Shown: in pieces, positions 3,197 to 19,542 of the stretch
Layout: each line of letters starts with the position of its first letter
Numbering within the stretch: the first letter of the stretch is position 1
Assembly (NCBI GenBank): GCA_019058315.1
Contig: JAHPZH010000002.1
Location: 384,001-448,000, forward strand
Direction of reading: 5' to 3'
DNA length: 64,000 nucleotides
Origin: Candidatus Helarchaeota archaeon
GTDB taxonomy: Archaea; Asgardarchaeota; Lokiarchaeia; Helarchaeales; RDOG01
Made by a program: the position numbers and the translations under genes
The notes under the pieces: model-generated
Seen by the model: only the letters and a program-made list of their open reading frames with translations
Told to the model about the DNA's origin: nothing
Databases searched by the model: none

Positions 3197-4780
3197 TCAT
3201 TCACTCTTTTTTACTATCAATATGAATATAATTGTTGCAACAGCGGCACCGATTCCAATTATCACAAAAATTATAATTGTATCGGGTTCTTGTGCTCCCA
3301 TAATCAGAATTAGAAGTTCCAGCCGATTAGAAGGAGATACTGTACGGGGTTGAAAATATTTATAAAATATATCATTACCTACTCCGGAACCCCCATAATC
3401 AGAATATTCATCCCATGCCACGTGTACTTTCCCAGATCCATCCACCGCAATTGATGGACTATAAGAATGGTTTGTGCTCTCCGTGGAGATTACATCTGTC
3501 GCGTTAACATAGCCATTCCAATTCCCTGAGATGGGGTCCCAGAATTTGTAAAATATATCAAAATACGGCCCCGCACCATCATAGGGTGACCAATCATACC
3601 ATGCCACGTGTACACTCCCGGATCCGTCCACTGCGATTGATGGCTCATAAGAAAGCGATGTACTCTCTGTGGAGACCACGTCGGTTGCATTGATAGTACC
3701 GTTCCATATGCCTGTCGAGGCGTTCCAGAACTTGTAAAATATATCATTCTCTCCTGCACCTGCGCCTCCATAGTCCGTAAAATCATTCCAAACCACATGT
3801 ATATTCCCTAAAAGGTCTACCGCGATCGAAGGTTGGCTAGAATCTAGTGTGCTCTCAGTGGAAACCACACTAGTTGTGCTCCAGGTGCTTGATGTAGCAT
3901 TCCAGAACTTATAAAATATATCATAATCCGTTCCTACTCCGGTATAATTCGTTTGATCATGCCATACCACGTGAACATTCCCAGAACCGTCCACTGCAAG
4001 TGATGGAAGTATAGAATTATTCAAACTCTCTGTGGAAACTACATCAGTCGCAGTAATAGTACCGTTCCATAAGTTTGTTGTGGCGTTCCAGAACTTGTAG
4101 AATATATCATAATCTGTTCCTGAGCCCCCGTAATTCGCATCATCATACCATACTACGTGCACATTCCCAAAACCATCTGCTACGATTTTTGGTCCGTAAG
4201 CACTACCTGTACTTTCCGTGGAGACCACAGTTGTCGTTTTCCAAGTGCTCGTAGTGGCGTTCCATACCTTGTAAAATATATCAAAATCCGTTCCCGCACT
4301 AGTATAATTCGTATTATCAAACCATACTACATGTACATTCCCGGAACTGTCCACAGCAATCGATGGACTATCAGAAGGTCCCGTGCTCTCTGTGGAGACT
4401 ATATCAGTCGCATTAACTCTACCGCTCCATATACCTGAATTGGCATTCCAAAACTTGTAAAATATATCCAAATCCGTTCCCGCACCCCCAATATTTGTAT
4501 AATCCTCCCATACTACATGTACGTTCCCGGCACCGTCCACTGCGATCGACACATCTTTACCACCAACCGCATGCAAGCTCTCCGTGGAGATCACTTCTGT
4601 TGTGGTCCATCCTGATGTAGACATTTTTAATTTAGGCTCATCTTTTAGTGCATTGTTAGATATTGTTACGTAGCTCCAAGATGATGACTGGTTTGTTGTA
4701 TTTGTGTAAATGATAGGAACAATTGCTAGAATAACTAGCATTTGGGCAAGCGTCAAAATACTAATTTTATTTTTGTTCAT
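3197..4780 (-). CDS. Membrane-anchored extracellular 7-bladed beta-propeller (glyco)protein
   Basis: N-terminal hydrophobic signal segment; 7 repeats of PSIAVDGSGNVHVVWxD...DIFYKFWNA; many NxT/S sequons; C-terminal TM helix followed by KKSE. Confidence 0.85.
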   Translation of the reverse strand: MNKNKISILTLAQMLVILAIVPIIYTNTTNQSSSWSYVTISNNALKDEPKLKMSTSGWTTTEVISTESLHAVGGKDVSIAVDGAGNVHVVWEDYTNIGGAGTDLDIFYKFWNANSGIWSGRVNATDIVSTESTGPSDSPSIAVDSSGNVHVVWFDNTNYTSAGTDFDIFYKVWNATTSTWKTTTVVSTESTGSAYGPKIVADGFGNVHVVWYDDANYGGSGTDYDIFYKFWNATTNLWNGTITATDVVSTESLNNSILPSLAVDGSGNVHVVWHDQTNYTGVGTDYDIFYKFWNATSSTWSTTSVVSTESTLDSSQPSIAVDLLGNIHVVWNDFTDYGGAGAGENDIFYKFWNASTGIWNGTINATDVVSTESTSLSYEPSIAVDGSGSVHVAWYDWSPYDGAGPYFDIFYKFWDPISGNWNGYVNATDVISTESTNHSYSPSIAVDGSGKVHVAWDEYSDYGGSGVGNDIFYKYFQPRTVSPSNRLELLILIMGAQEPDTIIIFVIIGIGAAVATIIFILIVKKSE

Positions 4781-5020
4781 AATTTTTCCTCGAATTCTAT
4801 AAAGATTTAAATTAGGTTTTCCTTTAGACTATTAAGTCCAAAAATAATGATTTAGTTTATAGAAGAATATTTATTTTTAAGGCTTATCAAAATCATGAAA
4901 TTGTTGTGAGTTATATTCTTTTAGAAATTTTGAATTTCTGGACTATTTCGATAAGAACTAAAAATATTTAAATTATGAATACGATTTTATCTTTAAATTA
5001 ATAATCGGAGGAATCAACAA

Positions 5021-7036
5021 TTGTTACCAATTAATAAAGTCGTCTTGTTTAAGACGGGAATCGGTTATTTCGAAAGAAAAGATAAAATAGATCTAGCAAA
5101 GAAATCAATAAATTTAAGTTTCAAACGAAAAGTTATGAATGATATATTAGCCACACTTACCATTGCGACGGGAAACAGTTTAGTTACTGGAATAAGTTAT
5201 GAAGGTGCAGAAACTGATCTTCAAAGAGCTCTCGAAGACGCTTTGATTAAGATCCCCAATGAAAACAGTTTTATAACTCTTTTAAAACAGCTGGTGGGAA
5301 GCACTGTCACCTTAAAAATTGTTGGAGAAGTTATAACTGGAATTGTTCTTGGTGTGCAAGAATTGAAAAAAGGAATTGAAAAAGCAATCATCAATGAACC
5401 GTATCTTGTTCTACGTGATATTAGTGGTTCGATTAGGAATATTAAAATTTCTGATCTTACTGGACCAAGTGCCCAATTATCAGTTAGTGATGATAAAATG
5501 AACAAAGAACTTCAATTCTTTATCGAAAAAATGTATACAAGCAAAAAAAAGGACATGAAACCCGTTACAATCTTCTTTGAGGGTGAAGGAAAAGATGATG
5601 TTACCGTATCTTATCTTCATGAGATGCCCAGCTGGAAAGTATCTTATCGTCTAACATTTATCGATGAAGATAATTTCTTACAAGGATGGGCGCTAATAGA
5701 CAATACATTAGATGAAGATTGGGAAAATATTGAACTCAGTTTAATTGCAGGTTTACCTATTTCATTTATTTACGACCTCTATACACCTAACTGGATTCTA
5801 AGACCTACTGTAGCTCGTAAGGATAAATATGACATCCAAGTAACTGAATTTGAGGGTGAACTTGAAGAATTACGCGAAATGAAAGAAGAAGCAAAGAGGC
5901 CAATGGCTCAACCAGCTGCTCCACGACCAATGAAAGCAATGGCTGGGAAAAGGAGAAGTAAGTTTAAAGTAACTGCAAAAGAAAAGATGGTAGCTACGGC
6001 ATCTGATAAGTCTGATGCATTAGATAGGCTAGAATCTACAAAGGTGGAGGCAAAAGGAGAAGAAGCTGGAGATTTTTTTGAATACAAGATAATGGTTCCA
6101 GTTACTGTAAAGCGAAATCAATCTAGCCTTGTTCCAATCTTACAATCAAAGATAACGGGTAAAAAGATGAGCGTTTATAATGAATCAGTTAGAGCCGATA
6201 ATCCAATGTTATGTTGCGAAATTGAGAATGATTCAGGACTTACCTTGGAGGAAGGACCAATCACGGTATATGATGCATCTACATTCATAGGCGAAGCAAT
6301 GCTGCCCTTCGTTAAACAAGGAGAGAAAAGAAGAATTCCTTACTCTGTGGATCTAGGGATAACAGTAAATACAAAAAGGAAAGAAAAATCAGTCGATATA
6401 CATCAAATTAAACTTGGAAAAGATTACCTCTACTCGTTCCAATACTATCTAAAAAAGTGCGAATATCTCGTTAAGAATAAATCTGAAGAAGCTAGAGAAG
6501 TCATCGTCGAACATCCCAAAGAAGATAGATTCGAACTCTATGAAACAGAAAAACCATTTGAAGAGTCTAAGAATTTTTACCGTTATATGGTCAAGGTAGA
6601 TCCAAAAACACAAGCTAAGCTTTTGATTAAAATTAGGCGAGTTGATCGCTCTAGTTGGTACTTTAGCAATGTTTCAAAGTCAGAAATCGATCTTTGGTAT
6701 AAACAGAAATTAATAAATGAAGAAGATAGGGATTTTCTACTAAAAATATGGAAACTTAATACAGAAAAAAATGAAGTCGATAACAAGATTAATGAATTAG
6801 AAAATAAGAAAAACAGTATTATTAATGACCAAAATCGGTTGAGACAAAACCTAAAAAGCATCGGAACAAGTAGGAGTGAAGAACGACTTAGAAACAAATA
6901 TATTACAAAAATGGATGAACAAGAGAATGAATTAGAAAAGATTGAGGCTGAAATCAAAGAATTAACAAAGAAAAGTGAAGAATTAGAACAAAAAATTAAT
7001 GATGAAATTCGAAAACGCCCTGTAGTGGAGGATTAA
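5021..7036 (+). CDS. DUF4139-family protein, subunit A (cassette 1), with C-terminal coiled coil
   Basis: LPINKVVLFKTGIGYFER, SWKVSYRL, GWALIDNTLDEDWENIELSLIAGLP, FFEYKIMVPVTVKRNQSSLVP, TLEEGP, DQNRLRQNL; TTG start with GGAGG SD. Confidence 0.8.
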   Translation: MLPINKVVLFKTGIGYFERKDKIDLAKKSINLSFKRKVMNDILATLTIATGNSLVTGISYEGAETDLQRALEDALIKIPNENSFITLLKQLVGSTVTLKIVGEVITGIVLGVQELKKGIEKAIINEPYLVLRDISGSIRNIKISDLTGPSAQLSVSDDKMNKELQFFIEKMYTSKKKDMKPVTIFFEGEGKDDVTVSYLHEMPSWKVSYRLTFIDEDNFLQGWALIDNTLDEDWENIELSLIAGLPISFIYDLYTPNWILRPTVARKDKYDIQVTEFEGELEELREMKEEAKRPMAQPAAPRPMKAMAGKRRSKFKVTAKEKMVATASDKSDALDRLESTKVEAKGEEAGDFFEYKIMVPVTVKRNQSSLVPILQSKITGKKMSVYNESVRADNPMLCCEIENDSGLTLEEGPITVYDASTFIGEAMLPFVKQGEKRRIPYSVDLGITVNTKRKEKSVDIHQIKLGKDYLYSFQYYLKKCEYLVKNKSEEAREVIVEHPKEDRFELYETEKPFEESKNFYRYMVKVDPKTQAKLLIKIRRVDRSSWYFSNVSKSEIDLWYKQKLINEEDRDFLLKIWKLNTEKNEVDNKINELENKKNSIINDQNRLRQNLKSIGTSRSEERLRNKYITKMDEQENELEKIEAEIKELTKKSEELEQKINDEIRKRPVVED

Positions 7037-7037
7037 A

Positions 7038-9284
7038 ATGTTAACCATTAAAAGTGCGATATTATATAAGACGGGCGTTGGATATTTCGAAAGATCTGGT
7101 AAAATTGATTTAAGTAAGACGAATAAAATTGTCTTATCATTCAAGAAAAAACTTATGAATGACGTTCTTGCTTCGCTCTCGGTGGCAGGTAAAGATGCGT
7201 TAGTTTCTGGGGTTTCCTATGAGGGTCACGATATTGATTTGGATAGAGCTCTTGAAGATTGTCTAATCAAAGTGCCTGAATTTGATTCATTTATCGTTCT
7301 TTTAAAACAATTAATCGGCAGTCATATTGAAATTATATTGGGTTCTGAAAAAATATCCGGTATAGTTTTAGGAATTCAAAAATTCGAACGAGGAGTCGAA
7401 GGAACTGAAGAAAAAATTATGGAACCGTTCCTAGTTCTATCAGATGATACTGGAGATATTAAAAATATTAAAATAGCTGACATGACAGGACCTGATGCCC
7501 GATTTTCGGTGAGTGATGAAAAGATGAACAAAGAACTGCAATACTTTTTGGAGACTATTTATACATCGAAGAAACGTGATGCAAAAAGCATGACCATTTT
7601 TCTTGAAAAAAAACCAGATTCAACAACTATGGATTCAGAGGTTTCGATTTCTTACCTTCATGAGGTACCTTCCTGGAAAGCTAGCTATCGCCTTCTTCTA
7701 TTTCCTACGGAAACCGTAATCCAAGGCTTTGGTTTGATTGATAATCCCACTGACGAAGATTGGAATGAAATTAATCTATCACTAATATCTGGTCTTCCAA
7801 TATCATTTATATATGACCTTTACTCCCCAAATTGGATTCAACGTCCAAGAGTTCAGCGGAGAACACAATATGATATAACTCCAACAACTTATGAAGAATC
7901 GACAACAGAAGAGGGTTATTTTGATCTTAAAGGGACGGGTGTATTGGGTGATGTTATGATACCAAAACTGGACGCTCATCGGGGTATACCAGCAGAAAAA
8001 ACAGGTGAACAGAGAATGAAACACATGATTCAATCTACAAAAGTAAGTGCTGCTGGAACAGAAGGTGGAGATTTTTTTCAATACGAAATTACAGTCCCCA
8101 TAACAGTAAAACGAAACCAAAGCTCATTGGTTCCTATTTTACAGTCTAATATAAAATCAAATAGAATGTCGGTCTATAATGAAAATGTAAGGAAAGATAA
8201 TCCGATGTTAACCATTGAGCTCACCAATGACACTGGACTTACTTTGGAAGAAGGTCCAATATCTGTATTCGAACTGGACAATTATGCTGGTGAAGCGATG
8301 CTTCCTTTTCTAAAGAAAGATGAAAAAAGAAGAATCGGATATGCAGTAGATCTTGGAGTACTGGTTAATAAAACAACAAAAGAAGATTCATTAAATTTCC
8401 ATGATATCAAAATTGAGAATAACATTCGAGCATTTAGGTACAGGATAAAGAAGGTAGAATATATAATTCGAAATAAATCCGATGATCCGAAAGAAGTTGT
8501 AATAGAACATCCGAAAGAGACTGATTATAAACTATATGAGACTGCTGATCCATTCGAAGAATCCAAAAATTTTTACAGATATAAAGTTTCAGTTGCTCCA
8601 AAGGCATCAGAAAAACTCCTTGTTAAAACGCGTATTGTTGAAAGTACTTATACATATTATTCTGGAGTTTCTAAATACCAAATTGAGGAATGGTATAATT
8701 TAAAATTGATAAATGATCAAGAAAAGGATTTCCTAATGAAAATATGGAAGGTAACAACGAAGTTACAAGATGTCAATGATGAAATTGATAGTAAAACTGA
8801 TGAAAAAAACAATATTTCAACGGATCAAAACCGTTTACGTCAAAATATTAAGGTTTTAGGACCATCTCATGGTGAACGTCAACTTAGAGAAAAATATGTC
8901 AAAAAATTAGAATCCCAAGAAGAAATTCTTGAAAGAATTGATGTGGAAATAGAGAAACTAAATAAAGAAAAAGAAAATCTCGAGTATCTGATAAATAAAT
9001 TAAATGAATTGGATTATGAAAATGGAACATCTCTGAATAATGTAGCATGGGGTTTCTACCTAGTCGGAGAAAGTGAGGTCGTAGTGGAATATGCAAGGAA
9101 AGCAATAGCTCTTGATGATGAGAAGGGTTTTATTTGGGATACATTGGGCTGTGGGTTGTATAGGATTGGAAAAATTAAAGAATCTTATGAAGCATTCTTA
9201 AAGGCAATAGAGTTAAGCCCCAAGGGTGAAGAAGATATAACAAAGGAAATCTATGAAAAAGTTAAAGCTGAATATAACCCCTAA
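7038..9284 (+). CDS. DUF4139-family protein, subunit B (cassette 1), with C-terminal TPR domain
   Basis: Paralog of 5021..7036 with the same motifs plus TPR-like LNNVAW...WDTLGCGLYRIG...AFLKAIELSP; starts 1 nt after the A stop. Confidence 0.8.
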   Translation: MLTIKSAILYKTGVGYFERSGKIDLSKTNKIVLSFKKKLMNDVLASLSVAGKDALVSGVSYEGHDIDLDRALEDCLIKVPEFDSFIVLLKQLIGSHIEIILGSEKISGIVLGIQKFERGVEGTEEKIMEPFLVLSDDTGDIKNIKIADMTGPDARFSVSDEKMNKELQYFLETIYTSKKRDAKSMTIFLEKKPDSTTMDSEVSISYLHEVPSWKASYRLLLFPTETVIQGFGLIDNPTDEDWNEINLSLISGLPISFIYDLYSPNWIQRPRVQRRTQYDITPTTYEESTTEEGYFDLKGTGVLGDVMIPKLDAHRGIPAEKTGEQRMKHMIQSTKVSAAGTEGGDFFQYEITVPITVKRNQSSLVPILQSNIKSNRMSVYNENVRKDNPMLTIELTNDTGLTLEEGPISVFELDNYAGEAMLPFLKKDEKRRIGYAVDLGVLVNKTTKEDSLNFHDIKIENNIRAFRYRIKKVEYIIRNKSDDPKEVVIEHPKETDYKLYETADPFEESKNFYRYKVSVAPKASEKLLVKTRIVESTYTYYSGVSKYQIEEWYNLKLINDQEKDFLMKIWKVTTKLQDVNDEIDSKTDEKNNISTDQNRLRQNIKVLGPSHGERQLREKYVKKLESQEEILERIDVEIEKLNKEKENLEYLINKLNELDYENGTSLNNVAWGFYLVGESEVVVEYARKAIALDDEKGFIWDTLGCGLYRIGKIKESYEAFLKAIELSPKGEEDITKEIYEKVKAEYNP

Positions 9285-9295
9285 TTTTTTTATTT

Positions 9296-10381
9296 TTACT
9301 TATTTGCCTTAATACTAAGTAATCTTTCTGAGCATTCAACCATACTTTGATAGTCTCCCAATCTTTCATATGCAATTGCCATTCTATTCCAAACATCCTT
9401 ATATTCAGGAGAACTAACTATAATTTGTTTGAAAAAATCTATAGCTTTTTGATAATCACGAGAATTTAGAAACATATTTCCCATTTTGTATAATCTTGTA
9501 ATATTTTTTTCTTGATCTTCTTTGGTTAGTACTTTTTCAACCTTTTCCTCAACCTTATCTTCAACCATTCCTTCAACTTTTTTTTCAACTACTTGTTCAA
9601 GTTTATCTCTAGATATTTTCTCATAAATTTTTTTAATTCTTGCTTGATCTTCATGATTAGGTAATTCCTGGATATGTTCTTTTGGAATTTTTTCTTCCAA
9701 TGATTTAACAATTTTTAAAGCAGTTTTATTACTAGGTTCGATTTTAATAACTTTTTTAAAAAAATCCAAAGCTATTTTTTCGTTTCCAGTATTCATATTA
9801 GCAATCCCAAGGTTAAAATATGCTCTTTCATTTAATGGATCCATATTAATGACTTTTTCACTATAAGCAATTGATTTTTTATGATCTCCTAATCTCCCGT
9901 AAATAGATGCTAAATTATTTAAAGCTTTTTTATTTTTTTTGTTCTTTTCAAGGGCCATTTCGTTATATTCTATTGCTTTTTGGTGATTTTCTAATTTAAT
10001 GTAAGCATCGGCTAAAGAGTTTAGAACTTCATTAAAGGTTGGATCTAATTTAAAAACTTGTTTGAAACATTTAATGGCTTTTTCATATTCTTTGATTATC
10101 ATATAAGAGTTACCTAGGAAATTCCAAGCTTCTTTATCTTCTGGATCAAGTAAAACCACGTTTTCATTGCATAAGATGGCATTTTCAATATCTCCAATAT
10201 TTGAATAACATATCGCTAATTCAACCCAAGCTTCTATAAAGTCAGAGTCAGACTCTACAGCCTTTCTAAAACTTTCAATGGCGTCTGCATTATCTCCTGC
10301 TCTTAAACAACTAAGTCCTTTGAAATAAGATATTCGGACTATTAAATCACGATCTTCTAGTTGAATAGGTTGCTTCATCAA
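9296..10381 (-). CDS. TPR repeat protein
   Basis: Multiple 34-aa TPRs (AWNFLGNSY...KAIKCFKQVFKLDP; AYFNLGIAN...KVIKIEP). Confidence 0.9.
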   Translation of the reverse strand: MMKQPIQLEDRDLIVRISYFKGLSCLRAGDNADAIESFRKAVESDSDFIEAWVELAICYSNIGDIENAILCNENVVLLDPEDKEAWNFLGNSYMIIKEYEKAIKCFKQVFKLDPTFNEVLNSLADAYIKLENHQKAIEYNEMALEKNKKNKKALNNLASIYGRLGDHKKSIAYSEKVINMDPLNERAYFNLGIANMNTGNEKIALDFFKKVIKIEPSNKTALKIVKSLEEKIPKEHIQELPNHEDQARIKKIYEKISRDKLEQVVEKKVEGMVEDKVEEKVEKVLTKEDQEKNITRLYKMGNMFLNSRDYQKAIDFFKQIIVSSPEYKDVWNRMAIAYERLGDYQSMVECSERLLSIKANK

Positions 10382-10491
10382 AAAATTAAATGCTCGATTT
10401 TATTTATACTAATTGATAAAATAAATGCTAAAATTTTTAAAAAAGACCTAGTTATATTTATACAACGGGCTACTCATGCGCGTTAAAAATC

Positions 10492-11532
10492 ATGATAGAA
10501 ATAAAATTTAATAAAAAGGTCACTTTAAAAGAGCACACCATTTTCTCAATAGTATTTTCTCACAATAACCGTTATTTTCTTAATGTTCTCAGCCCGTATT
10601 CTCCTCAGAGTGATTTTATTAATGTTAGGGAGTTAGAAACTGGAAAACTTGTTTGCTCGTTTAAATATGAAAATAGAGTAAAATCAATTGCAGTTTCTTC
10701 TAACATTTTCTATATTTTAAGTGGGTCAGAAGTCTGGGAGTTGGATTCAAGTAGTGCATGGACTCATAATCTAATATGGTCTCAAGGATGTTCTCAAAAT
10801 TTGTGGGGTAATCTTATTGAAATCTCACCTGATGGTCGTTATGTAATAACACAATCTGAGGGTAATACTATTAAGGTTCTAGAGATACGGTCTGGAAAAC
10901 AACTGTTTAAAATTGGAGGACATAGATATCCCATAAAGAAGATAAATGTCTCTCTTGATAATCGCTATATTATGACTACATCCGAAGATAAAACCATGAA
11001 AATTTGGGAATTTAATACAGGTAGATTAGTTCACACTTTAAAAAAGAACCATGATTTTGGTTCGAGTTTATTCTCTTCTGATGGAGGATATTTGATAACT
11101 GTAGCTGACTATAATAACCTCAATGTTTGGGAGCTAGAATCAGGAAATCTCAAACATAATATTAAAGGACATAAGAGTTATATTGACACATTAAATACTT
11201 TTGGAAATTATGTAATATCGGGATCTAGAGATAAAACCATTAAAATTTGGGAATTAACCACTGGTAAATTATTACATACACTTAAAGAACATACTGCTGG
11301 TGTGAGTTCAATCGCAATATCACCCGATGGGCGTTATCTATTTAGTGGATCAATTGATAAGACTGTTAAAGTTTGGGAATTACTCACAGGTAAATTATTA
11401 AAAACACTTGAAGGGCATGATGATTGGATAACTTCAGTTATGGTCTCTCCAAATGGTCGCTATATTATAACTACATCTTCTGCTGGTCCTAATCGTAGTC
11501 AAGAATATATCATCTGGCTGGTCGAATATTGA
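10492..11532 (+). CDS. WD40 repeat protein
   Basis: GH...SGSRDKTIKIWE, SPDGRYLFSGSIDKTVKVWE repeats. Confidence 0.93.
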   Translation: MIEIKFNKKVTLKEHTIFSIVFSHNNRYFLNVLSPYSPQSDFINVRELETGKLVCSFKYENRVKSIAVSSNIFYILSGSEVWELDSSSAWTHNLIWSQGCSQNLWGNLIEISPDGRYVITQSEGNTIKVLEIRSGKQLFKIGGHRYPIKKINVSLDNRYIMTTSEDKTMKIWEFNTGRLVHTLKKNHDFGSSLFSSDGGYLITVADYNNLNVWELESGNLKHNIKGHKSYIDTLNTFGNYVISGSRDKTIKIWELTTGKLLHTLKEHTAGVSSIAISPDGRYLFSGSIDKTVKVWELLTGKLLKTLEGHDDWITSVMVSPNGRYIITTSSAGPNRSQEYIIWLVEY

Positions 11533-11546
11533 TTAAAGAATAAGTT

Positions 11547-13076
11547 CTAGTAGATTTGGATTATTTTTTTTAATCTTTCTTCAGTTTTTTCATATTCTTC
11601 CTCACTTAATGGGTTATCATAAAGATATACTTTTTTTAATTTAAGAAGTTCTTTTAAGCCTTCTATTTTATTGATTTGATTGTCATAAAGACTTAAGAAT
11701 TGTAATTCAGCAAGCTTTTCTAATCCCTCTATTTTTGTAATATTGTTAGAACCAAGTTTTAAATCTTCCAATTGGTATAAATTTTCCAATCCCTCTAATT
11801 TTGTAATTTGATTATTACTCAAATCTAAATAATTTAAATTTTTAAGATTTTGTAATCCCTTAATTCTTTCAATTTCATTATGAGAAAGGTCTAATTCTTT
11901 TAATTGAAAAAGACTATCTAATCCTTCTATTTCGGCAATTTGATTACTAAATAGATCCAAATTCTGTAATAGGGAAAGACTTTCTAACATCTCTATTTTT
12001 GTAATTTCATTTGAATCAAGGGACAATTCTCTTAATTGTGAAAGTTGATGAATACCCTCTATTTTATTAATTTGATTATTATTAATACTTAATTCTTGTA
12101 ACTCTATCAGATATTCTAACCCCTCTATCTTTGAAATTTTGTTATTAGAAAGCCCCAAATCTTGTAATTTAATAAGTTTATTTAAATTCTCTATCTTTAT
12201 AACTTGATTTGCACTCAAATATAATCTATTTAATTGTATAAGATTCTCCAAATTTTCAATTTTTTCAATATCATTCTCTGAAAGATTTAAATATTCTAAT
12301 TCAGAAAGCTTTTCCAAGCCTTCTATCTTTGTAATTTTATTATGATCAAGGCTCAATTCTTTTAAATGTGTAAGAACTTCCAATCTTTGGATTTTAGATA
12401 TCTCATTTTCTCCTAGATATAATGATTGCAATTGAGAAGAATTTTCTAACCCCATAATTTCTGTGATTTTATTTTCAGTAAGCATTAACATTCTCAATTG
12501 TGTAAGATTTTCTAAACCTTCAATTTTTGTGATTTGATTATTATAAAAGATTAATTCTTGTAATCGAGAGAGCCTTTCTAAACCTTCTATTTTTGAAATT
12601 TTATTTGAATTAAAGTTTAATTTTCTTAAGTTAATAAGACTTTCTAACCCCTCTATTTTTGAAATTTGGTTACGAATAAGATTTAATTCTTGTAACTGGG
12701 AAATTCCCGACAACCCTTTTATCTTTGTTATCATATTAATGGATAAGTCTAATATTTTTAATTGAAAAAGTCCCTCTAATCCTTCAATTTTCTTAATATG
12801 ATTGTCTTTAATGAATAATTCCTGTAATTGGTTTAATCTATTTAAGCCTTCTATTTTTGTAATCTGATTATGTCCAAGATCTAAGGATTGTAATTGGGTA
12901 AAATCTGAAAGTAATATTGGAATTTTTTTCAAATTTTTATTTAATAATACAAGTTTAACTATATTACCTTCATTATTAATTTCAAAATCGTTATCATTTA
13001 ATTTAAATTTCTCCATTAATTCTTCCATTGTTGTTTTTTCTCGAAGTTCTTTGATTTGATTTATTTTTTCAATCAT
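11547..13076 (-). CDS. SDS22-type leucine-rich repeat protein
   Basis: About 20 22-aa repeats LxxLxLxxNxIxKIEGLExL; YDNPL cap. Confidence 0.95.
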   Translation of the reverse strand: MIEKINQIKELREKTTMEELMEKFKLNDNDFEINNEGNIVKLVLLNKNLKKIPILLSDFTQLQSLDLGHNQITKIEGLNRLNQLQELFIKDNHIKKIEGLEGLFQLKILDLSINMITKIKGLSGISQLQELNLIRNQISKIEGLESLINLRKLNFNSNKISKIEGLERLSRLQELIFYNNQITKIEGLENLTQLRMLMLTENKITEIMGLENSSQLQSLYLGENEISKIQRLEVLTHLKELSLDHNKITKIEGLEKLSELEYLNLSENDIEKIENLENLIQLNRLYLSANQVIKIENLNKLIKLQDLGLSNNKISKIEGLEYLIELQELSINNNQINKIEGIHQLSQLRELSLDSNEITKIEMLESLSLLQNLDLFSNQIAEIEGLDSLFQLKELDLSHNEIERIKGLQNLKNLNYLDLSNNQITKLEGLENLYQLEDLKLGSNNITKIEGLEKLAELQFLSLYDNQINKIEGLKELLKLKKVYLYDNPLSEEEYEKTEERLKKIIQIY

Positions 13077-13264
13077 TTTATAACCTAAATACTCAATCCT
13101 AAATTTTTATTATAAAAAAATAATCAATTAAAAATTTATGTGTTAATTAAAAAACTTGGTATTCCAACTGAATTAAAATTATTCAGAACTAAATTTTCTC
13201 AAAAATAAAAGTATTTAAACGATTAACTTTTACTTTTATTAATTTATTAGTAGAGGAATATTCC

Positions 13265-15283
13265 ATGTTACCAATAAATAAAGTAATATTGTTTAAAACA
13301 GGAATCGGATGTTTCGAAAGACAAGGAAAAGTTGATTTAAAAAAGAAAACTATTGATTTGAGCTTTAAGAGAAAGGTTATGAACGATTTATTAGCCACTT
13401 TATCAATTGCGACAAAAAACAGTCTAGTTACTGGAATTAGTTATGAAGGTTCTGAAATCGATCTTGAAAGGGCATTAGAAGATGCTCTTATCAAAATACC
13501 TCCCGAAGATTCTTTTCTAAATTTATTAAAACAATTAGTAGGTAGCAATATAACATTAACAATTGCTGGAGAAATAATTGAAGGAGTAATACTTGGTATA
13601 CAGAGAATGAAAAAAGGTCTTGATAAAGCAATCATTAATGAACCTTATCTGGTATTAAGTGAAAAAGGTGGAACTGTAAAAAATCTTAAAATTTCTGATC
13701 TAACTGGTCCTAATTCCAAATTATCAGTTAGCGATGAAAAGATGAATAAGGAGTTAAAATTCTTTATAGAGAAGATGTATACAAGTAGAAAGAAAGATAT
13801 GAAATCTTTAACGATATTCTTCGAAGGGGAAGGAGAAGATGAAGTTACAGTCACTTATTTACACGAGATGCCAAGCTGGAAAGTTTCGTACCGATTAACT
13901 TTTATAGAAGAGGACAATTTTATTCAAGGTTGGGCTCTAATCGATAATACATTAGATGAAGACTGGGAAAATATAGAATTAAGCCTTGTAGCTGGATTGC
14001 CTATAAGTTTTATCTATGATCTATACACACCTAATTGGATTCAACGCCCAACAGTTGCTAGACGAGAAAAATATGATATTGAAGTAACCGAATACGAAGA
14101 AGAAATGGACAATTTAATGGATATGGCAAAAAAGTCAGAAGAAATGGCTATGCCTACAACAGCCACAACAACTCCTGCACCAGCCCAATTCGGAGGAGCA
14201 GGAGCATTTAGAGCTCTAGCCAAGCAAAAAAGCGTATATGGAGCAAAAGATAGAGCTAATGCAGAAGCCCGACTAGATTCTACAAAAGTAGAAGCCAAGG
14301 GAGAGGAAGCTGGGGATTTCTTCGAATATAAAATAATGGTTCCAGTCACTGTTAAACGAAACCAAAGTTCATTAGTGCCGATATTGCAAGCTAAGATTAC
14401 GGGTAATAAAATGAGTGTATATAATGAATCGGTTAGAGCTGATAATCCAATGTTATGTTGCGAAATTGAGAATGATTCCGGACTTACTCTAGAGGAAGGA
14501 CCAGTTACGGTATACGAAATGTCCACCTTTGTAGGTGAGGCGATGTTACCTTTCATTAGACAAGGAGAAAAAAGACGAATCCCATACTCGGTCGATTTAG
14601 GGATTACAGTTGAAACTAAATGGAAAGAAAAGTATGTAGATATTCATAAGATTCAGCTTGGAGAAGATTACTTGTATAGTTTTAATTATTATAAAAAGCA
14701 ATGTAAATATACTGTTAAGAACAAATCTGAAGAGGGTCGTGAAGTAATAATTGAATTTCCCAAGGAATATGGCTATGAGCTCTATGATACAGATGATAAT
14801 AAGCCTTTTGAAGAGAGTAAGAATTTTTATCGATATAAAGTTAAAGTAGATCCCAAAACACAAGCAAAACTGTTGGTTAAAAGCAGAAGAGTTGACAAAT
14901 CGACATATTATTTCCAGAATGTTTCAAAATCAGACATTGATCTATGGTATAAACAAAAATTAATTACTGATGCTGAATATGAGTTTCTTTTAAAAATTTG
15001 GGAATTGAATAATGAAAAAAGAGAAGTTGATAACCAGATCAACGATTTGCAGAACAAGAAAAATAGTATCATTAATGATCAAAATAGATTAAGGCAGAAC
15101 TTACGAAGTATTGGAACAAGTAGGAGTGAAGAACGGCTTAGAAACAAATATATTACAAAATTAGACGAGCAAGAGGTTCAATTAGAAAATATTGAGGCAG
15201 AAATTAAAGAATTAACTAAAAAAAGTGAGGATTTGGAACTAAAAATTAATGAAGAAATTCGAAAACGACCTGTGGAAGTGTAA
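13265..15283 (+). CDS. DUF4139-family protein, subunit A (cassette 2)
   Basis: Collinear close paralog of 5021..7036 with long identical peptide stretches. Confidence 0.8.
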   Translation: MLPINKVILFKTGIGCFERQGKVDLKKKTIDLSFKRKVMNDLLATLSIATKNSLVTGISYEGSEIDLERALEDALIKIPPEDSFLNLLKQLVGSNITLTIAGEIIEGVILGIQRMKKGLDKAIINEPYLVLSEKGGTVKNLKISDLTGPNSKLSVSDEKMNKELKFFIEKMYTSRKKDMKSLTIFFEGEGEDEVTVTYLHEMPSWKVSYRLTFIEEDNFIQGWALIDNTLDEDWENIELSLVAGLPISFIYDLYTPNWIQRPTVARREKYDIEVTEYEEEMDNLMDMAKKSEEMAMPTTATTTPAPAQFGGAGAFRALAKQKSVYGAKDRANAEARLDSTKVEAKGEEAGDFFEYKIMVPVTVKRNQSSLVPILQAKITGNKMSVYNESVRADNPMLCCEIENDSGLTLEEGPVTVYEMSTFVGEAMLPFIRQGEKRRIPYSVDLGITVETKWKEKYVDIHKIQLGEDYLYSFNYYKKQCKYTVKNKSEEGREVIIEFPKEYGYELYDTDDNKPFEESKNFYRYKVKVDPKTQAKLLVKSRRVDKSTYYFQNVSKSDIDLWYKQKLITDAEYEFLLKIWELNNEKREVDNQINDLQNKKNSIINDQNRLRQNLRSIGTSRSEERLRNKYITKLDEQEVQLENIEAEIKELTKKSEDLELKINEEIRKRPVEV

Positions 15284-15287
15284 TTAA

Positions 15288-17534
15288 ATGTTAGAAATAA
15301 CAAAAGCAATTTTATATAAAACTGGAATTGGCTACTTTGAGCGTATAGGAAAAATCGATTTTAATAAATCAAATAAGATAATTCTATCTTTCAAGAAGAA
15401 GCTTATGAATGATGTTCTAGCATCTCTTTCGGTCTCGGGCAAATCCAGCTTAGTCACTGGAGTTTCTTATGAAGGACACGACATAGATCTGGCAAGAGCA
15501 CTAGAAGATGCTCTTATTAAGGTACCGAATGAAAATTCTTTTATTTCCTTACTAAAACAGACCGTAGGCTCTCAAATTGAAATCAAGATTGGAAGTGAAG
15601 TTATTAAAGGGATTGTTCTTGGAATTCAAAGTTATGAAGTTGGGGTAGAAGGAACAAAAGAAAAAATCCAAGAACCTTTTTTAGTTTTAGCTGATGAAAG
15701 TGGGGATATAAAAAATATCAAAGTAGCAGATATGACTGGTCCTGATGCAACATTTTATTTAACTGATGAAAAAATGAACAAAGAATTACAATATTTCCTA
15801 GAAACAATCTATAGTTCAAAGAAACGTGATGCTAAAACGATGACAATTTTTCTAGAACAAAAACCAGATTCCCCTAATGAATCCGAAGTTTCAATATCTT
15901 ACCTGCATGAAGTCCCTTCATGGAAGGCCAGCTACAGACTTTTAGTATTTCCAGGTGGAGAAACCATCATTCAGGGTTTTGGTTTAATCGATAACCCAAC
16001 AGATGAAGATTGGAATAGTATTAATTTATCACTAATATCTGGATTACCAGTATCATTTATATACGATCTTTATTCCCCAAATTGGATAAAACGTCCTTTT
16101 GTTGCACGTAGGGAAAGTTATGATATCACTCCGACTACTTATGAGGAGGATATATCTGGATCTGATCAAACTCTTGATGGTGCTCCAATGGAATTAGGGG
16201 CAGTCACGAAGATCCCACGGGTTACGTCCGGGTCTACAGCTAACTTGAGAGATGAAAGAGAAAGAATGCAGAGAGTTTTAGAATCAACAAAAGTTGCTGC
16301 TGCAGGATCTGAAGGTGGAGACTTCTTCGAGTACGAGATAACAGTTCCTATAACTGTAAAACGAAATGAATCGTCATTAGTCCCAATATTACAATCTGAA
16401 ATAAAAGCAAATAGAATGTCAGTTTATAATGAAAAAGTCCGTAAGGATAATCCAATGCTAACAGTAGAATTGACAAATAACACTAATTTGACTTTAGAAG
16501 AGGGTCCTATATCAATCTATGAAGCAGGAACTTTCTCAGGAGAGGGAATGTTACCATTTCTAAAAAAGGAAGAAAAGCGAAGGATCGGTTATGCTGTAGA
16601 TCTTGGTGTTCTCGTTACCACAAAGACTGAAGAAGACTCATTAGATTTTCATCAAATTAGAATTGCACGTAATCTTCAAGGATACCGATACAGAATAAAA
16701 AAAGTCGAATATACTATAAAAAATAAAACTGATGAGCAAAAAGAAATCGTCATAGAACATCCAAAGATTAAAAAATGGGACTTATTTGAAACCAAAGATC
16801 CATTTGAAGAGTCGAAAAATTTCTATCGATATAAACAGACATTAGCTCCCAATACTTCAGAGAAGCTTCTTATAAAGACTAGAAATGTTGAAATTGAATA
16901 CAGATACTATTCAAATGTTTCAAAATATGATATTGAAGCTTGGTATGAATTAAAATTAATCAATGACGAACAAAAAGAATTTTTAATGAAAATCTGGAGA
17001 GCAACCACCAAACTAAGCGATTTAAGAGCTGAAATTCAATCTTTACAGAATGATAAAAACAACATTTCAACGGATCAAAATCGTCTTCGTGAAAATATTA
17101 AAGTTCTTAAAATAAGCCATGGCGAACGTCAACTTCGTGAGAAGTATATTAAAAAATTAGAAGATCAAGAAGAAATCCTTGAAAAGATTGAAGCAAAAAT
17201 CGAAAAAATACAAAAAGAAGTTAAGAATTACGAATATCTTATTAGCAAATTAAATGAGTTAAATTATAATAATGCCTCCTCCCTAAATAGTGTCGCTTGG
17301 GGATTCTGGCTAATTAAAGACGCTGAAACATGTGTAGAATATGCTAAAAAATCAATTGATCTCGATCCTACACGAAGTTCTACCTGGGATACTTTAGCTT
17401 GTGGCTTATATGGAATTGGAAAAATTAAAGAAAGTTATGAAGCATTTCAGAAAGCTATAGAATTAAAGCCTAAAGGTGAAGAAGGTTTAACTAAAGAAGT
17501 TTGGGAAAAAGTGAAGTCTCAATACAATCCTTAA
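15288..17534 (+). CDS. DUF4139-family protein, subunit B with C-terminal TPR (cassette 2)
   Basis: Same length (748 aa) as and collinear with 7038..9284. Confidence 0.8.
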   Translation: MLEITKAILYKTGIGYFERIGKIDFNKSNKIILSFKKKLMNDVLASLSVSGKSSLVTGVSYEGHDIDLARALEDALIKVPNENSFISLLKQTVGSQIEIKIGSEVIKGIVLGIQSYEVGVEGTKEKIQEPFLVLADESGDIKNIKVADMTGPDATFYLTDEKMNKELQYFLETIYSSKKRDAKTMTIFLEQKPDSPNESEVSISYLHEVPSWKASYRLLVFPGGETIIQGFGLIDNPTDEDWNSINLSLISGLPVSFIYDLYSPNWIKRPFVARRESYDITPTTYEEDISGSDQTLDGAPMELGAVTKIPRVTSGSTANLRDERERMQRVLESTKVAAAGSEGGDFFEYEITVPITVKRNESSLVPILQSEIKANRMSVYNEKVRKDNPMLTVELTNNTNLTLEEGPISIYEAGTFSGEGMLPFLKKEEKRRIGYAVDLGVLVTTKTEEDSLDFHQIRIARNLQGYRYRIKKVEYTIKNKTDEQKEIVIEHPKIKKWDLFETKDPFEESKNFYRYKQTLAPNTSEKLLIKTRNVEIEYRYYSNVSKYDIEAWYELKLINDEQKEFLMKIWRATTKLSDLRAEIQSLQNDKNNISTDQNRLRENIKVLKISHGERQLREKYIKKLEDQEEILEKIEAKIEKIQKEVKNYEYLISKLNELNYNNASSLNSVAWGFWLIKDAETCVEYAKKSIDLDPTRSSTWDTLACGLYGIGKIKESYEAFQKAIELKPKGEEGLTKEVWEKVKSQYNP

Positions 17535-17987: not shown

Positions 17988-18560
17988 ATGAGTCGTCGAA
18001 TAAAGAAAAAAGTTTCCAAAGACGTAGGAGCTAAGATGGCTGGTTTAGACAAGCTCCAATTGAAAATTATGAAGGGTTTAAGTAGGACTAAATCAATTTT
18101 CCAAAATATAAAAATAAAAAGGGAGAATAAAGAAAAAGAAATGGATATTACAGAAAAAACACAATCAGAAATAGCTAAAATAAGTAAAAAACTTGAAAAT
18201 AATGAAAATATATTTGAAAAAATTTCAAAACAAATAACAGTTCAAGGGGAAATATTATCACAAAGAGTTGCAAGATTTCAAGAAGTTATGAAAGGTCTTG
18301 TAATTAAAAGTGAAGAATTGGAAGAATTTGGAAAGGCTCCGGTTGAAGGACACATGACAGTCGAGGATATAGAAAGTTTCTTAGCTACATTATACGAAAA
18401 TTATGGTATGATGCAACGAACGTATGAGGAAACTAAGGATGATGCCTTTTTAGAAATGGCTATGGATACACAGTTAGCAATTCAGGAGATTAATGAAATT
18501 AAAGGGTATTTAATAGAACGTGGACGATTCGATAAAGAATTTGATTCACTAGGAATATAA
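17988..18560 (+). CDS. Hypothetical coiled-coil protein (basic N-half, acidic C-half)
   Basis: 190-aa ORF with helical/heptad character. Confidence 0.7.
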   Translation: MSRRIKKKVSKDVGAKMAGLDKLQLKIMKGLSRTKSIFQNIKIKRENKEKEMDITEKTQSEIAKISKKLENNENIFEKISKQITVQGEILSQRVARFQEVMKGLVIKSEELEEFGKAPVEGHMTVEDIESFLATLYENYGMMQRTYEETKDDAFLEMAMDTQLAIQEINEIKGYLIERGRFDKEFDSLGI

Positions 18561-18600: not shown

Positions 18601-19542
18601 ATGGAAAGTTTACCTAATTGGCATCCATATTGGTCATCATTTCCTAATGAACTTGAATATAGTGATTTAGATACAGCTGTAATTGACTTTATAATGAGTT
18701 GCTATCACAAAGTGGAGGGGGGATTTGGAGATTATAAGACGGAAAAAGAGCCGTATGTAAGCTCAACAGCTAAAGGGTTAATTTGTCTAGATTTATTAAA
18801 AAAAATAGATATGGTAAAAAGAATCGATATATATTCATTTTTAAGAGGTTGTCAAAATTCTGATTTTGGATTTGCTATTACAACTTCGAAAAGTGATTTA
18901 TATCCATCAAACTTAGAAAGCACTTATTATAGTATAATCGCAATAAACCTGATTGGATATTTACCTCGTTTAAAACTTCACCAACCTAAAATAATTAATT
19001 GGGTTCTTTCCCACTATAATTTCGATGGAGGATTTCATAGTGATGAAAGTGTTGTTTCTAACGAATATTACACATTTCAGGCTTTATTAATATTGAATCT
19101 TTTAAAGGGTCTTGATAGAATAGACCCAAATTTAACGGTAAGTTATTTAATTAATAGACAAACCTTTAAAAACCCTGAAGTCACATTGACAACAAGCCAG
19201 CTTCTATCCTTATATCTGCTAATAAGTCCAGAAGAAGTAATAGATAGATTGAATATCAAGGTTTCAACTAGTCGTTTATTACGTTGTCAAAACAAGACGG
19301 GAGGATTTCGTAAGAAAAAAATAGATTTAATATATAAATCCGATATGCTTTATACATTCCAAGCTATTATAGGATTAACTATTATAAGAAAGCTGACAAG
19401 AATTAACAAAGAAAAAGCAATTGAATGGATAATTTCTTGTCAAAATGATGATGGTGGTTTTGGAAACAAACCAAATGCAAAATCGTCCCTTTCAAATACA
19501 TTCTATGCTTTAATATCATTATATCATCTGACGAGTCTATAA
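18601..19542 (+). CDS. Prenyltransferase/squalene-oxidase-repeat protein resembling a GGTase beta subunit
   Basis: Repeated motifs CQNSDFGF, HYNFDGGF, CQNKTGGF, CQNDDGGFGNKP...SNTFYAL. Confidence 0.8.
   Translation: MESLPNWHPYWSSFPNELEYSDLDTAVIDFIMSCYHKVEGGFGDYKTEKEPYVSSTAKGLICLDLLKKIDMVKRIDIYSFLRGCQNSDFGFAITTSKSDLYPSNLESTYYSIIAINLIGYLPRLKLHQPKIINWVLSHYNFDGGFHSDESVVSNEYYTFQALLILNLLKGLDRIDPNLTVSYLINRQTFKNPEVTLTTSQLLSLYLLISPEEVIDRLNIKVSTSRLLRCQNKTGGFRKKKIDLIYKSDMLYTFQAIIGLTIIRKLTRINKEKAIEWIISCQNDDGGFGNKPNAKSSLSNTFYALISLYHLTSL

Follow-up and report, generated by a model that had tools for sequence, protein, structure and literature searches.

Why would an archaeal genome keep two copies of a two-gene unit whose proteins belong to a superfamily catalogued as uncharacterised? 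This question is raised by a stretch of 64,000 nucleotides (the window) from a Candidatus Helarchaeota archaeon (assembly GCA_019058315.1, contig JAHPZH010000002.1, positions 384,001 to 448,000), in which a gene that we call A is followed by its paralog B, and this cassette is followed, after a spacing of 3,980 nt, by a second one formed by A' and B'. An initial annotation, made from the letters of the window, had read the four genes as a duplicated DUF4139-like cassette encoding a candidate cytoplasmic heteromeric machine. Our analysis firmly supports a history for this arrangement: a widespread single-copy gene, from a branch of the DUF4139 superfamily, gave rise to a lineage-specific tandem pair, and this pair was in turn duplicated long ago, with selection maintaining both copies.

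All four genes lie on the forward strand, and the listing of open reading frames (ORFs) agrees with the annotation that they are intact and tightly coupled: A (5021-7036, 671 aa), B (7038-9284, 748 aa), A' (13265-15283, 672 aa) and B' (15288-17534, 748 aa). A opens with a TTG codon, which aligns with the ATG start of A' and with the ATG of the orthologs. The gap between the genes is 1 nt in the first cassette (7036/7038) and 4 nt in the second (15283/15288), and the Shine-Dalgarno (SD) sequence of B, GGAGG at 7027-7031, sits inside the final codons of A; the short gaps and the position of this SD suggest that the translation of A and B is coupled. Between cassettes the proteins are 76% (A/A') and 71% (B/B') identical, and A and B, correctly recognised as paralogs, share about 52% identity over their full shared length.

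The common upstream layout described for the two cassettes was also recovered. The octamer TATTTAAA forms a TATA-like box 48 nt 5' of the start of A (4965-4972, forward) and 45 nt 5' of the start of A' (13212-13219, forward), and each box is followed by an SD on the same strand (GGAGG at 5007-5011 for A, GAGG at 13253-13256 for A'). The window is AT-rich, and the octamer shows no enrichment in it (27 observed vs 32.7 expected); it is its positional conservation alone that counts, not its frequency: the box AAAA-N-TATTTAAA is invariant across four upstream regions (those of A, A' and the orthologs in two other metagenome-assembled genomes, or MAGs) while the flanks diverge, so it reads as a putative conserved archaeal TATA element. 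A scan for bacterial sigma-70 promoters and terminators was discarded, being inapplicable to an archaeon and giving a result no better than shuffled sequences.

How old is the duplication, and has it been maintained? Nucleotide identity between the cassettes is 70-74% and synonymous sites are saturated (pS 0.72-0.76), with dN at 0.16-0.21; the comparisons that still allow an estimate of dS give a dN/dS of 0.04-0.08 (about 0.07). Neither cassette is broken, and purifying selection on both is strong. The flanking genes point to how the second copy arose. On the left, outside the cassette, a GH31 glycosidase gene (1-2391, reverse; Pfam Glyco_hydro_31, E 1e-127) serves as synteny anchor and also flanks A in loci L092 and L094; on the right, B' is followed by o190, a gene for a 190-aa orphan protein (17988-18560, forward), and by a gene for a prenyltransferase-like alpha-alpha toroid protein (18601-19542, forward; Pfam Prenyltrans, E 1e-33), the right-hand anchor of Hel-type loci. 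In L092, a Helarchaeota contig with a single cassette, the order is GH31 (reverse), a 595-aa gene, A, B, o193, the prenyltransferase-like gene and a histone gene. Compared with this order, the window is the ancestral GH31-A-B-o190-prenyltransferase-like locus in which the A-B unit was tandemly duplicated long ago, the flanking synteny of the ancestral locus now being split between the two copies. A second MAG, GCA_048940975.1, fits the same history: its ortholog of A (P0005, 91% aa identity) adjoins GH31, its ortholog of B' (P0013, 87% aa identity) adjoins o190 and the prenyltransferase-like gene, and a partial A' ortholog is 82.5% identical. Since A clusters in a tree with the A of this MAG and B' with its B', the cassette duplication is older than the split between the two genomes.

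The next question was what kind of protein had been duplicated. None of the four reaches the gathering threshold of Pfam DUF4139 (PF13598, 31.8 bits), their scores being 18.8 (A), 26.6 (B), 19.6 (A') and 25.3 (B') bits, nor the 112.6-bit cut-off of TIGR02231 (MuiA family), on which they score 29-50 bits, and DUF4140 gave no match in any of them at E<=0.1. By hhalign, however, a profile of 107 family members was matched with 95% probability (E 3e-8) to a protein that the same genome encodes, a canonical DUF4140+DUF4139 member with 125 bits on DUF4139; the match covers 280 columns that span residues 181-504 of A' and include the NxxxEDW motif. The DUF4139-like label given in the initial annotation is thereby upheld, and A, B, A' and B' belong to the superfamily as a genuine branch, though a divergent one.

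This branch is large: counted as representatives of clusters at 50% identity, it has 9,381 members at E<=1e-3 and at least 3,343 at E<=1e-30. Full-length relatives of about 660 aa with 30-38% identity occur in Myxococcota (including the cultured Corallococcus, Myxococcus and Cystobacter fuscus), Planctomycetota, Thiotrichaceae, Acidobacteriota, several Asgard lineages and Undinarchaeota. The alignment of 107 sequences contains 49 invariant columns, and the conserved motifs DNTxDEDW, AGLPISF and RNQSxLVPI lie on the predicted surface. A-type proteins keep 90 of 94 family-conserved columns and B-type proteins 89, and by this measure neither type appears degenerate. Dozens of invariant polar residues, together with the very low dN/dS, imply that the family must do something precise. 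In the literature the names DUF4139, DUF4140, TIGR02231 and F37C4.5 occur in lists only, and sequence searches of solved structures in the PDB returned coiled-coil matches alone, both for the family profile and for the canonical DUF4139 protein, in agreement with the annotation's statement that no function is established.

Other members of the superfamily were found in the same genome. A tandem pair of canonical DUF4140+DUF4139 genes (L117:4580-6232 and 6260-7930, reverse; G000:C11, ~554.6-557.9 kb) encodes proteins of 550 and 556 aa with DUF4139 scores of 118 and 125 bits and a mutual identity of 70%, the 556-aa member being leaderless; the superfamily is therefore present as coupled pairs twice in this genome. 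A fifth paralog, of 1,240 aa (L118:4935-8657, reverse, equal to G000:C5:194934-198656), consists of an A-like N-terminal half (51% identity), three tandem copies of the C-terminal beta module and one terminal coiled coil; other Asgard MAGs, with the labels Helarchaeota or Promethearchaeota, conserve it at a length of 1,210-1,246 aa. Among forms longer than 1,177 aa it was the only one to turn up, so that no informative fusion came to light.

If the gene is so widespread, is the pair widespread too? We surveyed 80 loci from species-representative genomes, mostly bacterial, with 8 kb on either side, and the family gene was a singleton in 79 of them; among 151 sampled Asgard genomes it was present in 40, mostly with one match. 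The idea that A-B pairs would be conserved elsewhere did not survive this survey. Tandem pairs were nevertheless seen in five settings, with gaps of 1-12 nt in most: the Hel-type (A+B, partners 52-54% identical), the Loki-type (~650 + ~673 aa, four loci, 52%), the P0016/P0025 clade (L012, 75%), G123 (39%) and the canonical pair described above. In all five the partners are nearer to each other than to the pairs of other lineages, which points to pairs having arisen repeatedly by lineage-specific tandem duplication; concerted evolution of one older pair would be the alternative explanation of this pattern. The contig of L012 (DATKTP010000009.1) bears the label of a bacterium, Candidatus Deferrimicrobium, and since its pair, 48% identical to A', falls inside the Asgard clade, the contig is probably mis-binned.

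What would such a protein look like? We modelled A' with AlphaFold2 from the family alignment, obtaining a mean pLDDT of 82, and a model of residues 1-556 agreed with it. The predicted chain begins with an N-terminal beta-sandwich (residues ~1-60 and 180-245) into which a helix and an Sm-like barrel are inserted (~80-165), continues through a disordered stretch (255-324, pLDDT <50) to a second beta-rich module (344-549), and ends in an antiparallel hairpin of two helices of about 47 residues each (569-615 and 620-667; nt 14969-15265). The two beta-sandwich modules, which carry most of the invariant polar residues, are predicted to form a rigid body. The coiled-coil motif DQNRLRxN...LRxKY singled out in the initial annotation is real, and its position corresponds to the tip of the predicted hairpin (residues 569-667), where the family-invariant Q606, R608, N612 and E622 sit at the turn. 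B and B' would add to this plan a C-terminal tetratricopeptide repeat (TPR) module (in B at about nt 8994-9281), as had been proposed: TPR_2 matches at about residues 699-729 reach 22.6 and 20.7 bits (E 1e-4 to 4e-4), below the cut-off of 27, a partial PrsT TPR match covers the C-terminus (E 3e-7), and the 95-aa C-terminal module of B is kept in seven of seven B-type proteins.

Fold comparisons gave likenesses of limited reach. The full model returned mostly generic helical hairpins (Z ~10), and the truncated A' model gave no match at Z >=8. The barrel (residues ~80-165, compared as model residues 79-164) superposes on the Hfq protein 3hfo_A (Z 7.6, rmsd 1.8 over 62 residues, a Z range common by chance), and overall on Hfq/Lsm folds with rmsd 1.8-2.3 over 62-68 residues and with the N-terminal helix in place; unlike Hfq and Sm proteins, however, it is an insert in a larger domain and not a ring-forming subunit. 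The M1 aminopeptidase N-domain was also among the best matches to the beta body (TM ~0.1, VIA Z ~6; with ribophorin I, discussed below, the range is 5.7-6.3). As for a role in anti-phage defence, PADLOC gave only coiled-coil-level matches to LmuB and DruC over the helical region (E 3e-5 to 7e-3, at most 21.5 bits), and this candidate was rejected.

The disordered stretch proved to be the most variable part of these proteins. This arm (residues 263-341 in both A, where it corresponds to nt 5807-6043, forward, and A', where pLDDT is low) is 43-46% identical between cassettes vs 71-83% elsewhere, with 43% for A/A' vs 79-83% outside the arm, and 58-77% identical between orthologs vs 88-95% elsewhere; in A its disorder is read from the A' model. 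Across the family the arm has a median length of 74 aa, and many representatives have arms of 150-200 aa. When ten of these long arms, from bacterial members, were analysed, eight contained CarboxypepD_reg, one contained TonB_C and one nothing recognisable (the domain-bearing arms are P0236:340-540 and those of P0206, P0219, P0220, P0232, P0240, P0243, P0198 and P0275). The arm thus appears to be an insertion hot spot at a fixed site, which in this DUF4139 branch accepts whole domains.

Besides the pair itself, o190 deserves attention. This helical protein has no Pfam or Atlas match and nine detectable relatives, of which the named ones come from Asgard MAGs and adjoin a B-type gene wherever context exists. 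It is adjacent to the pair in three of three Hel-type and four of four Loki-type loci, in differing orientations; the Loki-type homolog, found with an o190 profile, is 33% identical and lies divergently upstream of the pair. The same profile had no match among the singleton loci examined. As this link outlasts rearrangement, it suggests a functional connection between o190 and the pair in pair-bearing lineages. The Loki-type loci (L009, L113, L114 and L115) share one gene order, in which the o190 homolog (reverse) comes first and the pair second, followed by a membrane protein of 292-294 aa and then by a small Arf/Ras GTPase (reverse), with a RagA/Arf-like GTPase of 400-420 aa upstream in three of the four; the membrane protein has a homolog in L092 (16938-17786).

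What could the pair then be for? On the history set out above, tandem duplication of one single-copy gene first produced the A-B unit, and tandem duplication of the whole unit followed, giving the two cassettes. In the scheme that we propose, the body would be a self-associating scaffold, ancestrally homomeric, which in Helarchaeales-like and Loki-like Asgards became a heteromer of two co-translated paralogs; the arms, the TPR of B and o190 would be its variable, client-facing parts, with the four paralogs offering four different arms. Coupled translation, the repeated retention of pairs, the duplication of the whole unit and the domain-bearing arms of relatives all favour a heteromer. That the body self-associates and became an A/B heteromer in these Asgards, with arms, TPR and o190 facing partners, is a reading we hold tentatively, giving it somewhat less than an even chance.

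Several points weigh against it. Oligomerisation, contact between A and B and client binding are all inferred, for these proteins as for the rest of the family, and the fold searches yielded no strong structural homolog that would give a functional lead. Because the gene is single-copy almost everywhere, a heteromer is not required for function, and the retention of conserved residues by both paralogs fits independent action equally well. About half of the distant representatives have predicted leaders, which makes it unlikely that a role tied to cytoplasmic partners is ancestral. The fast evolution of the arm could reflect relaxed constraint on a linker. Finally, a contact between the TPR of B and the conserved acidic tail of A (EEIRKRPVxEE) lost weight as a candidate, since the codons of this tail overlap the SD of B and its conservation is weak evidence for such a contact. 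A complex prediction with full A' and the hairpin-TPR fragment of B' (residues 550-748) scored 0.04 and 0.05 vs a mark of 0.32 and speaks neither for nor against.

The alternative that survives best is that the paralogs are independent, with A, B, A' and B' acting alone or as homo-oligomers and the duplications serving to diversify the arm and to add a TPR (subfunctionalisation). The prevalence of singletons, in the locus survey as in most positive Asgard genomes, agrees with it, as do the near-complete sets of conserved columns in both types and the concentration of their differences in the arm and the TPR. It accounts less readily for pairs with gaps of 1-12 nt being retained in at least four lineages, for an SD of B located within A, which suggests stoichiometric co-translation, and for the duplication and retention of a whole A-B unit instead of a single gene, and we consider it somewhat unlikely. 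The heteromer can also be taken further: A, B and o190 may constitute an Asgard-specific heteromeric scaffold that uses the hypervariable arms and the TPR of B as exchangeable docking handles, the same display-arm principle operating in exported bacterial relatives with TonB_C or CarboxypepD_reg in the arm. This is speculative and, in our judgement, unlikely to hold in full; if true, it would represent an undescribed modular adaptor architecture common to archaea and bacteria.

Where do these proteins act? The absence of a signal peptide noted in the annotation is confirmed for A, B, A' and B', whose family-conserved core begins at residue 2 with no N-terminal extension, and all 113 near relatives are likewise leaderless, starting directly at the conserved first strand. 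Among 143 new cluster representatives (P0137-P0279), however, 68 have an N-terminal extension with a Sec-type hydrophobic h-region and 58 are leaderless. The cytoplasmic part of the proposed machine can therefore not be extended to the family as a whole. These leaders open the possibility of an envelope or extracytoplasmic role, as in the exported relatives, with the Asgard proteins taking an unconventional route to the membrane surface or out of the cell. Such a role would suit the TonB_C and CarboxypepD_reg inserts of the arms, which are typical envelope domains, as well as two comparisons with known proteins. One is with Pseudomonas aeruginosa MuiA, the one studied member of the superfamily, which is controlled by the extracytoplasmic function (ECF) sigma factor SbrI, is induced by envelope stress and has a debated role (PMC10418997). 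MuiA-family and window proteins have a homologous beta-sandwich core and share the NxxxEDW and GxP motifs, a variable insert at the same position and a tendency to occur as tandem paralogs, but the window proteins have the predicted Sm-like barrel in place of an internal coiled coil, add the C-terminal hairpin with its invariant tip (and in B the TPR), and are leaderless, whereas MuiA belongs to a cell-envelope stress regulon.

The other comparison is with ribophorin I/Ost1, the luminal beta-sandwich subunit of the eukaryotic oligosaccharyltransferase (OST) and the top Foldseek match to the beta body (6s7o_E, E 2.5e-5, probability 0.66; further matches 6ezn_A and 6c26_1, the set covering E 2.5e-5 to 5e-4 and probability 0.5-0.66). 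The predicted order of two beta-sandwich modules followed by helices recalls that of ribophorin I, but the TM score is only ~0.1, the VIA comparison reaches Z 5.7 (127 residues), and the window proteins have neither a membrane anchor nor an OST context. Kinship by profile was rejected, as there was no PF04597 Pfam match and hhalign against the genome's own PF04597-positive protein gave a probability of 2.8%. A 594-aa ORF of this genome (L116:1321-3105, forward; G000:C5, ~557.8-559.5 kb) scores 29.1 bits on Pfam Ribophorin_I, just above the cut-off, and counts as an Asgard ribophorin I-like gene. Set against an envelope role are the lack of leaders in the four window proteins and in their 113 near relatives, the TPR of B, an o190 without a hydrophobic leader by eye and the lack of secretion genes nearby, and we regard this role as improbable.

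A still less probable alternative would make these proteins a cytoplasmic protease trap like alpha-2-macroglobulin, with the arm as bait, cleavage changing the body, and the neighbouring toroid protein acting like a thioester-containing domain (TED). Alpha-2-macroglobulin and C3 likewise expose a flexible hypervariable segment between beta-sandwich modules, as the disordered arm would be; Foldseek found weak matches to C3, CD109 and A2M chains, at a probability of at most 0.25, and the toroid protein has a sub-threshold match to TED_complement (19.1 bits vs a cut-off of 22). A and B themselves, however, have no Pfam TED or MG match, and the MG-type matches in the family come from the inserted CarboxypepD_reg domains and not from the core. 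The toroid protein lacks a CxEQ thioester motif by eye, its real match is to Prenyltrans, and its gene is linked in Hel-type loci only; and the arms of relatives hold folded, docking-type domains and not bait peptides. Last, that the second cassette is a mis-assembled repeat or a decaying duplicate can be practically dismissed: the source is a MAG and the contigs of the related MAG break within the cassettes, but the divergence and low dN/dS given above, the separate orthologs of each copy, an independently assembled Logan contig, from the likely source sample, that spans 6205-14470 (starting within A, passing B and the three repeat-protein genes and ending in A') and three runs of another study, from a related population, that cover both cassettes at 95-99% identity all agree with the annotation's view that the duplication is genuine.

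This branch is among the larger protein families without a function, a structure or a literature, and the analysis turns a vague domain of unknown function into testable questions about self-association and the binding partners of the arm. The elements defined here are a domain plan, a fixed hot spot that takes in whole domains, a split between exported and leaderless forms, and a repeated shift in Asgards from one gene to a coupled pair with a small orphan partner; new are the leaderless, hairpin-bearing Asgard branch, its duplication history, the TPR-bearing paralog with its orphan partner, and the arm as a site of domain insertion. The cultured myxobacteria named above carry the leaderless single-copy form and would be usable for genetics.

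The remaining genes around the cassettes seem to be of local interest. Pfam agrees with the annotation that A is divergent from an SBBP beta-propeller repeat gene (3197-4780, reverse) and A' from a leucine-rich repeat (LRR) gene (11547-13076, reverse), and that a TPR gene (9296-10381, reverse) and a WD40 gene (10492-11532, forward) lie with the latter between the cassettes. The propeller gene is absent at L092 and L094, and the TPR, WD40 and LRR genes are absent from the single-cassette L092, so they cannot be counted as part of a conserved locus. Contigs from two runs of another study link position 13374 with 9925 through 17 additional letters, and related strains may carry a rearranged version of the region between the cassettes. 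L092 also carries MCR-type genes upstream; by these and by the labels of the best matches, the genome of the window is placed as a Helarchaeales-like Asgard.

Among the surveyed loci we found no neighbour conserved across phyla. The GH31 link is confined to Hel and Jord Asgard loci, and an apparent cluster of ~980-aa neighbours was not real, since it combined Ser/Thr kinases with an FtsK-like ATPase. Small GTPase genes are plentiful in Asgard genomes, and those seen near the family gene in three Asgard families (Loki, Jord and a third) may be no more than chance neighbours. In Gemmataceae (L027:7687-12443, L035, L040 and L046) the single-copy gene is directly followed by genes for a 160-196-aa protein of unknown function and an FtsK/SpoIIIE-like ATPase (in L027, the locus scanned with Pfam, it has 1,292 aa); the arrangement may reflect either a module of this lineage or mere synteny.

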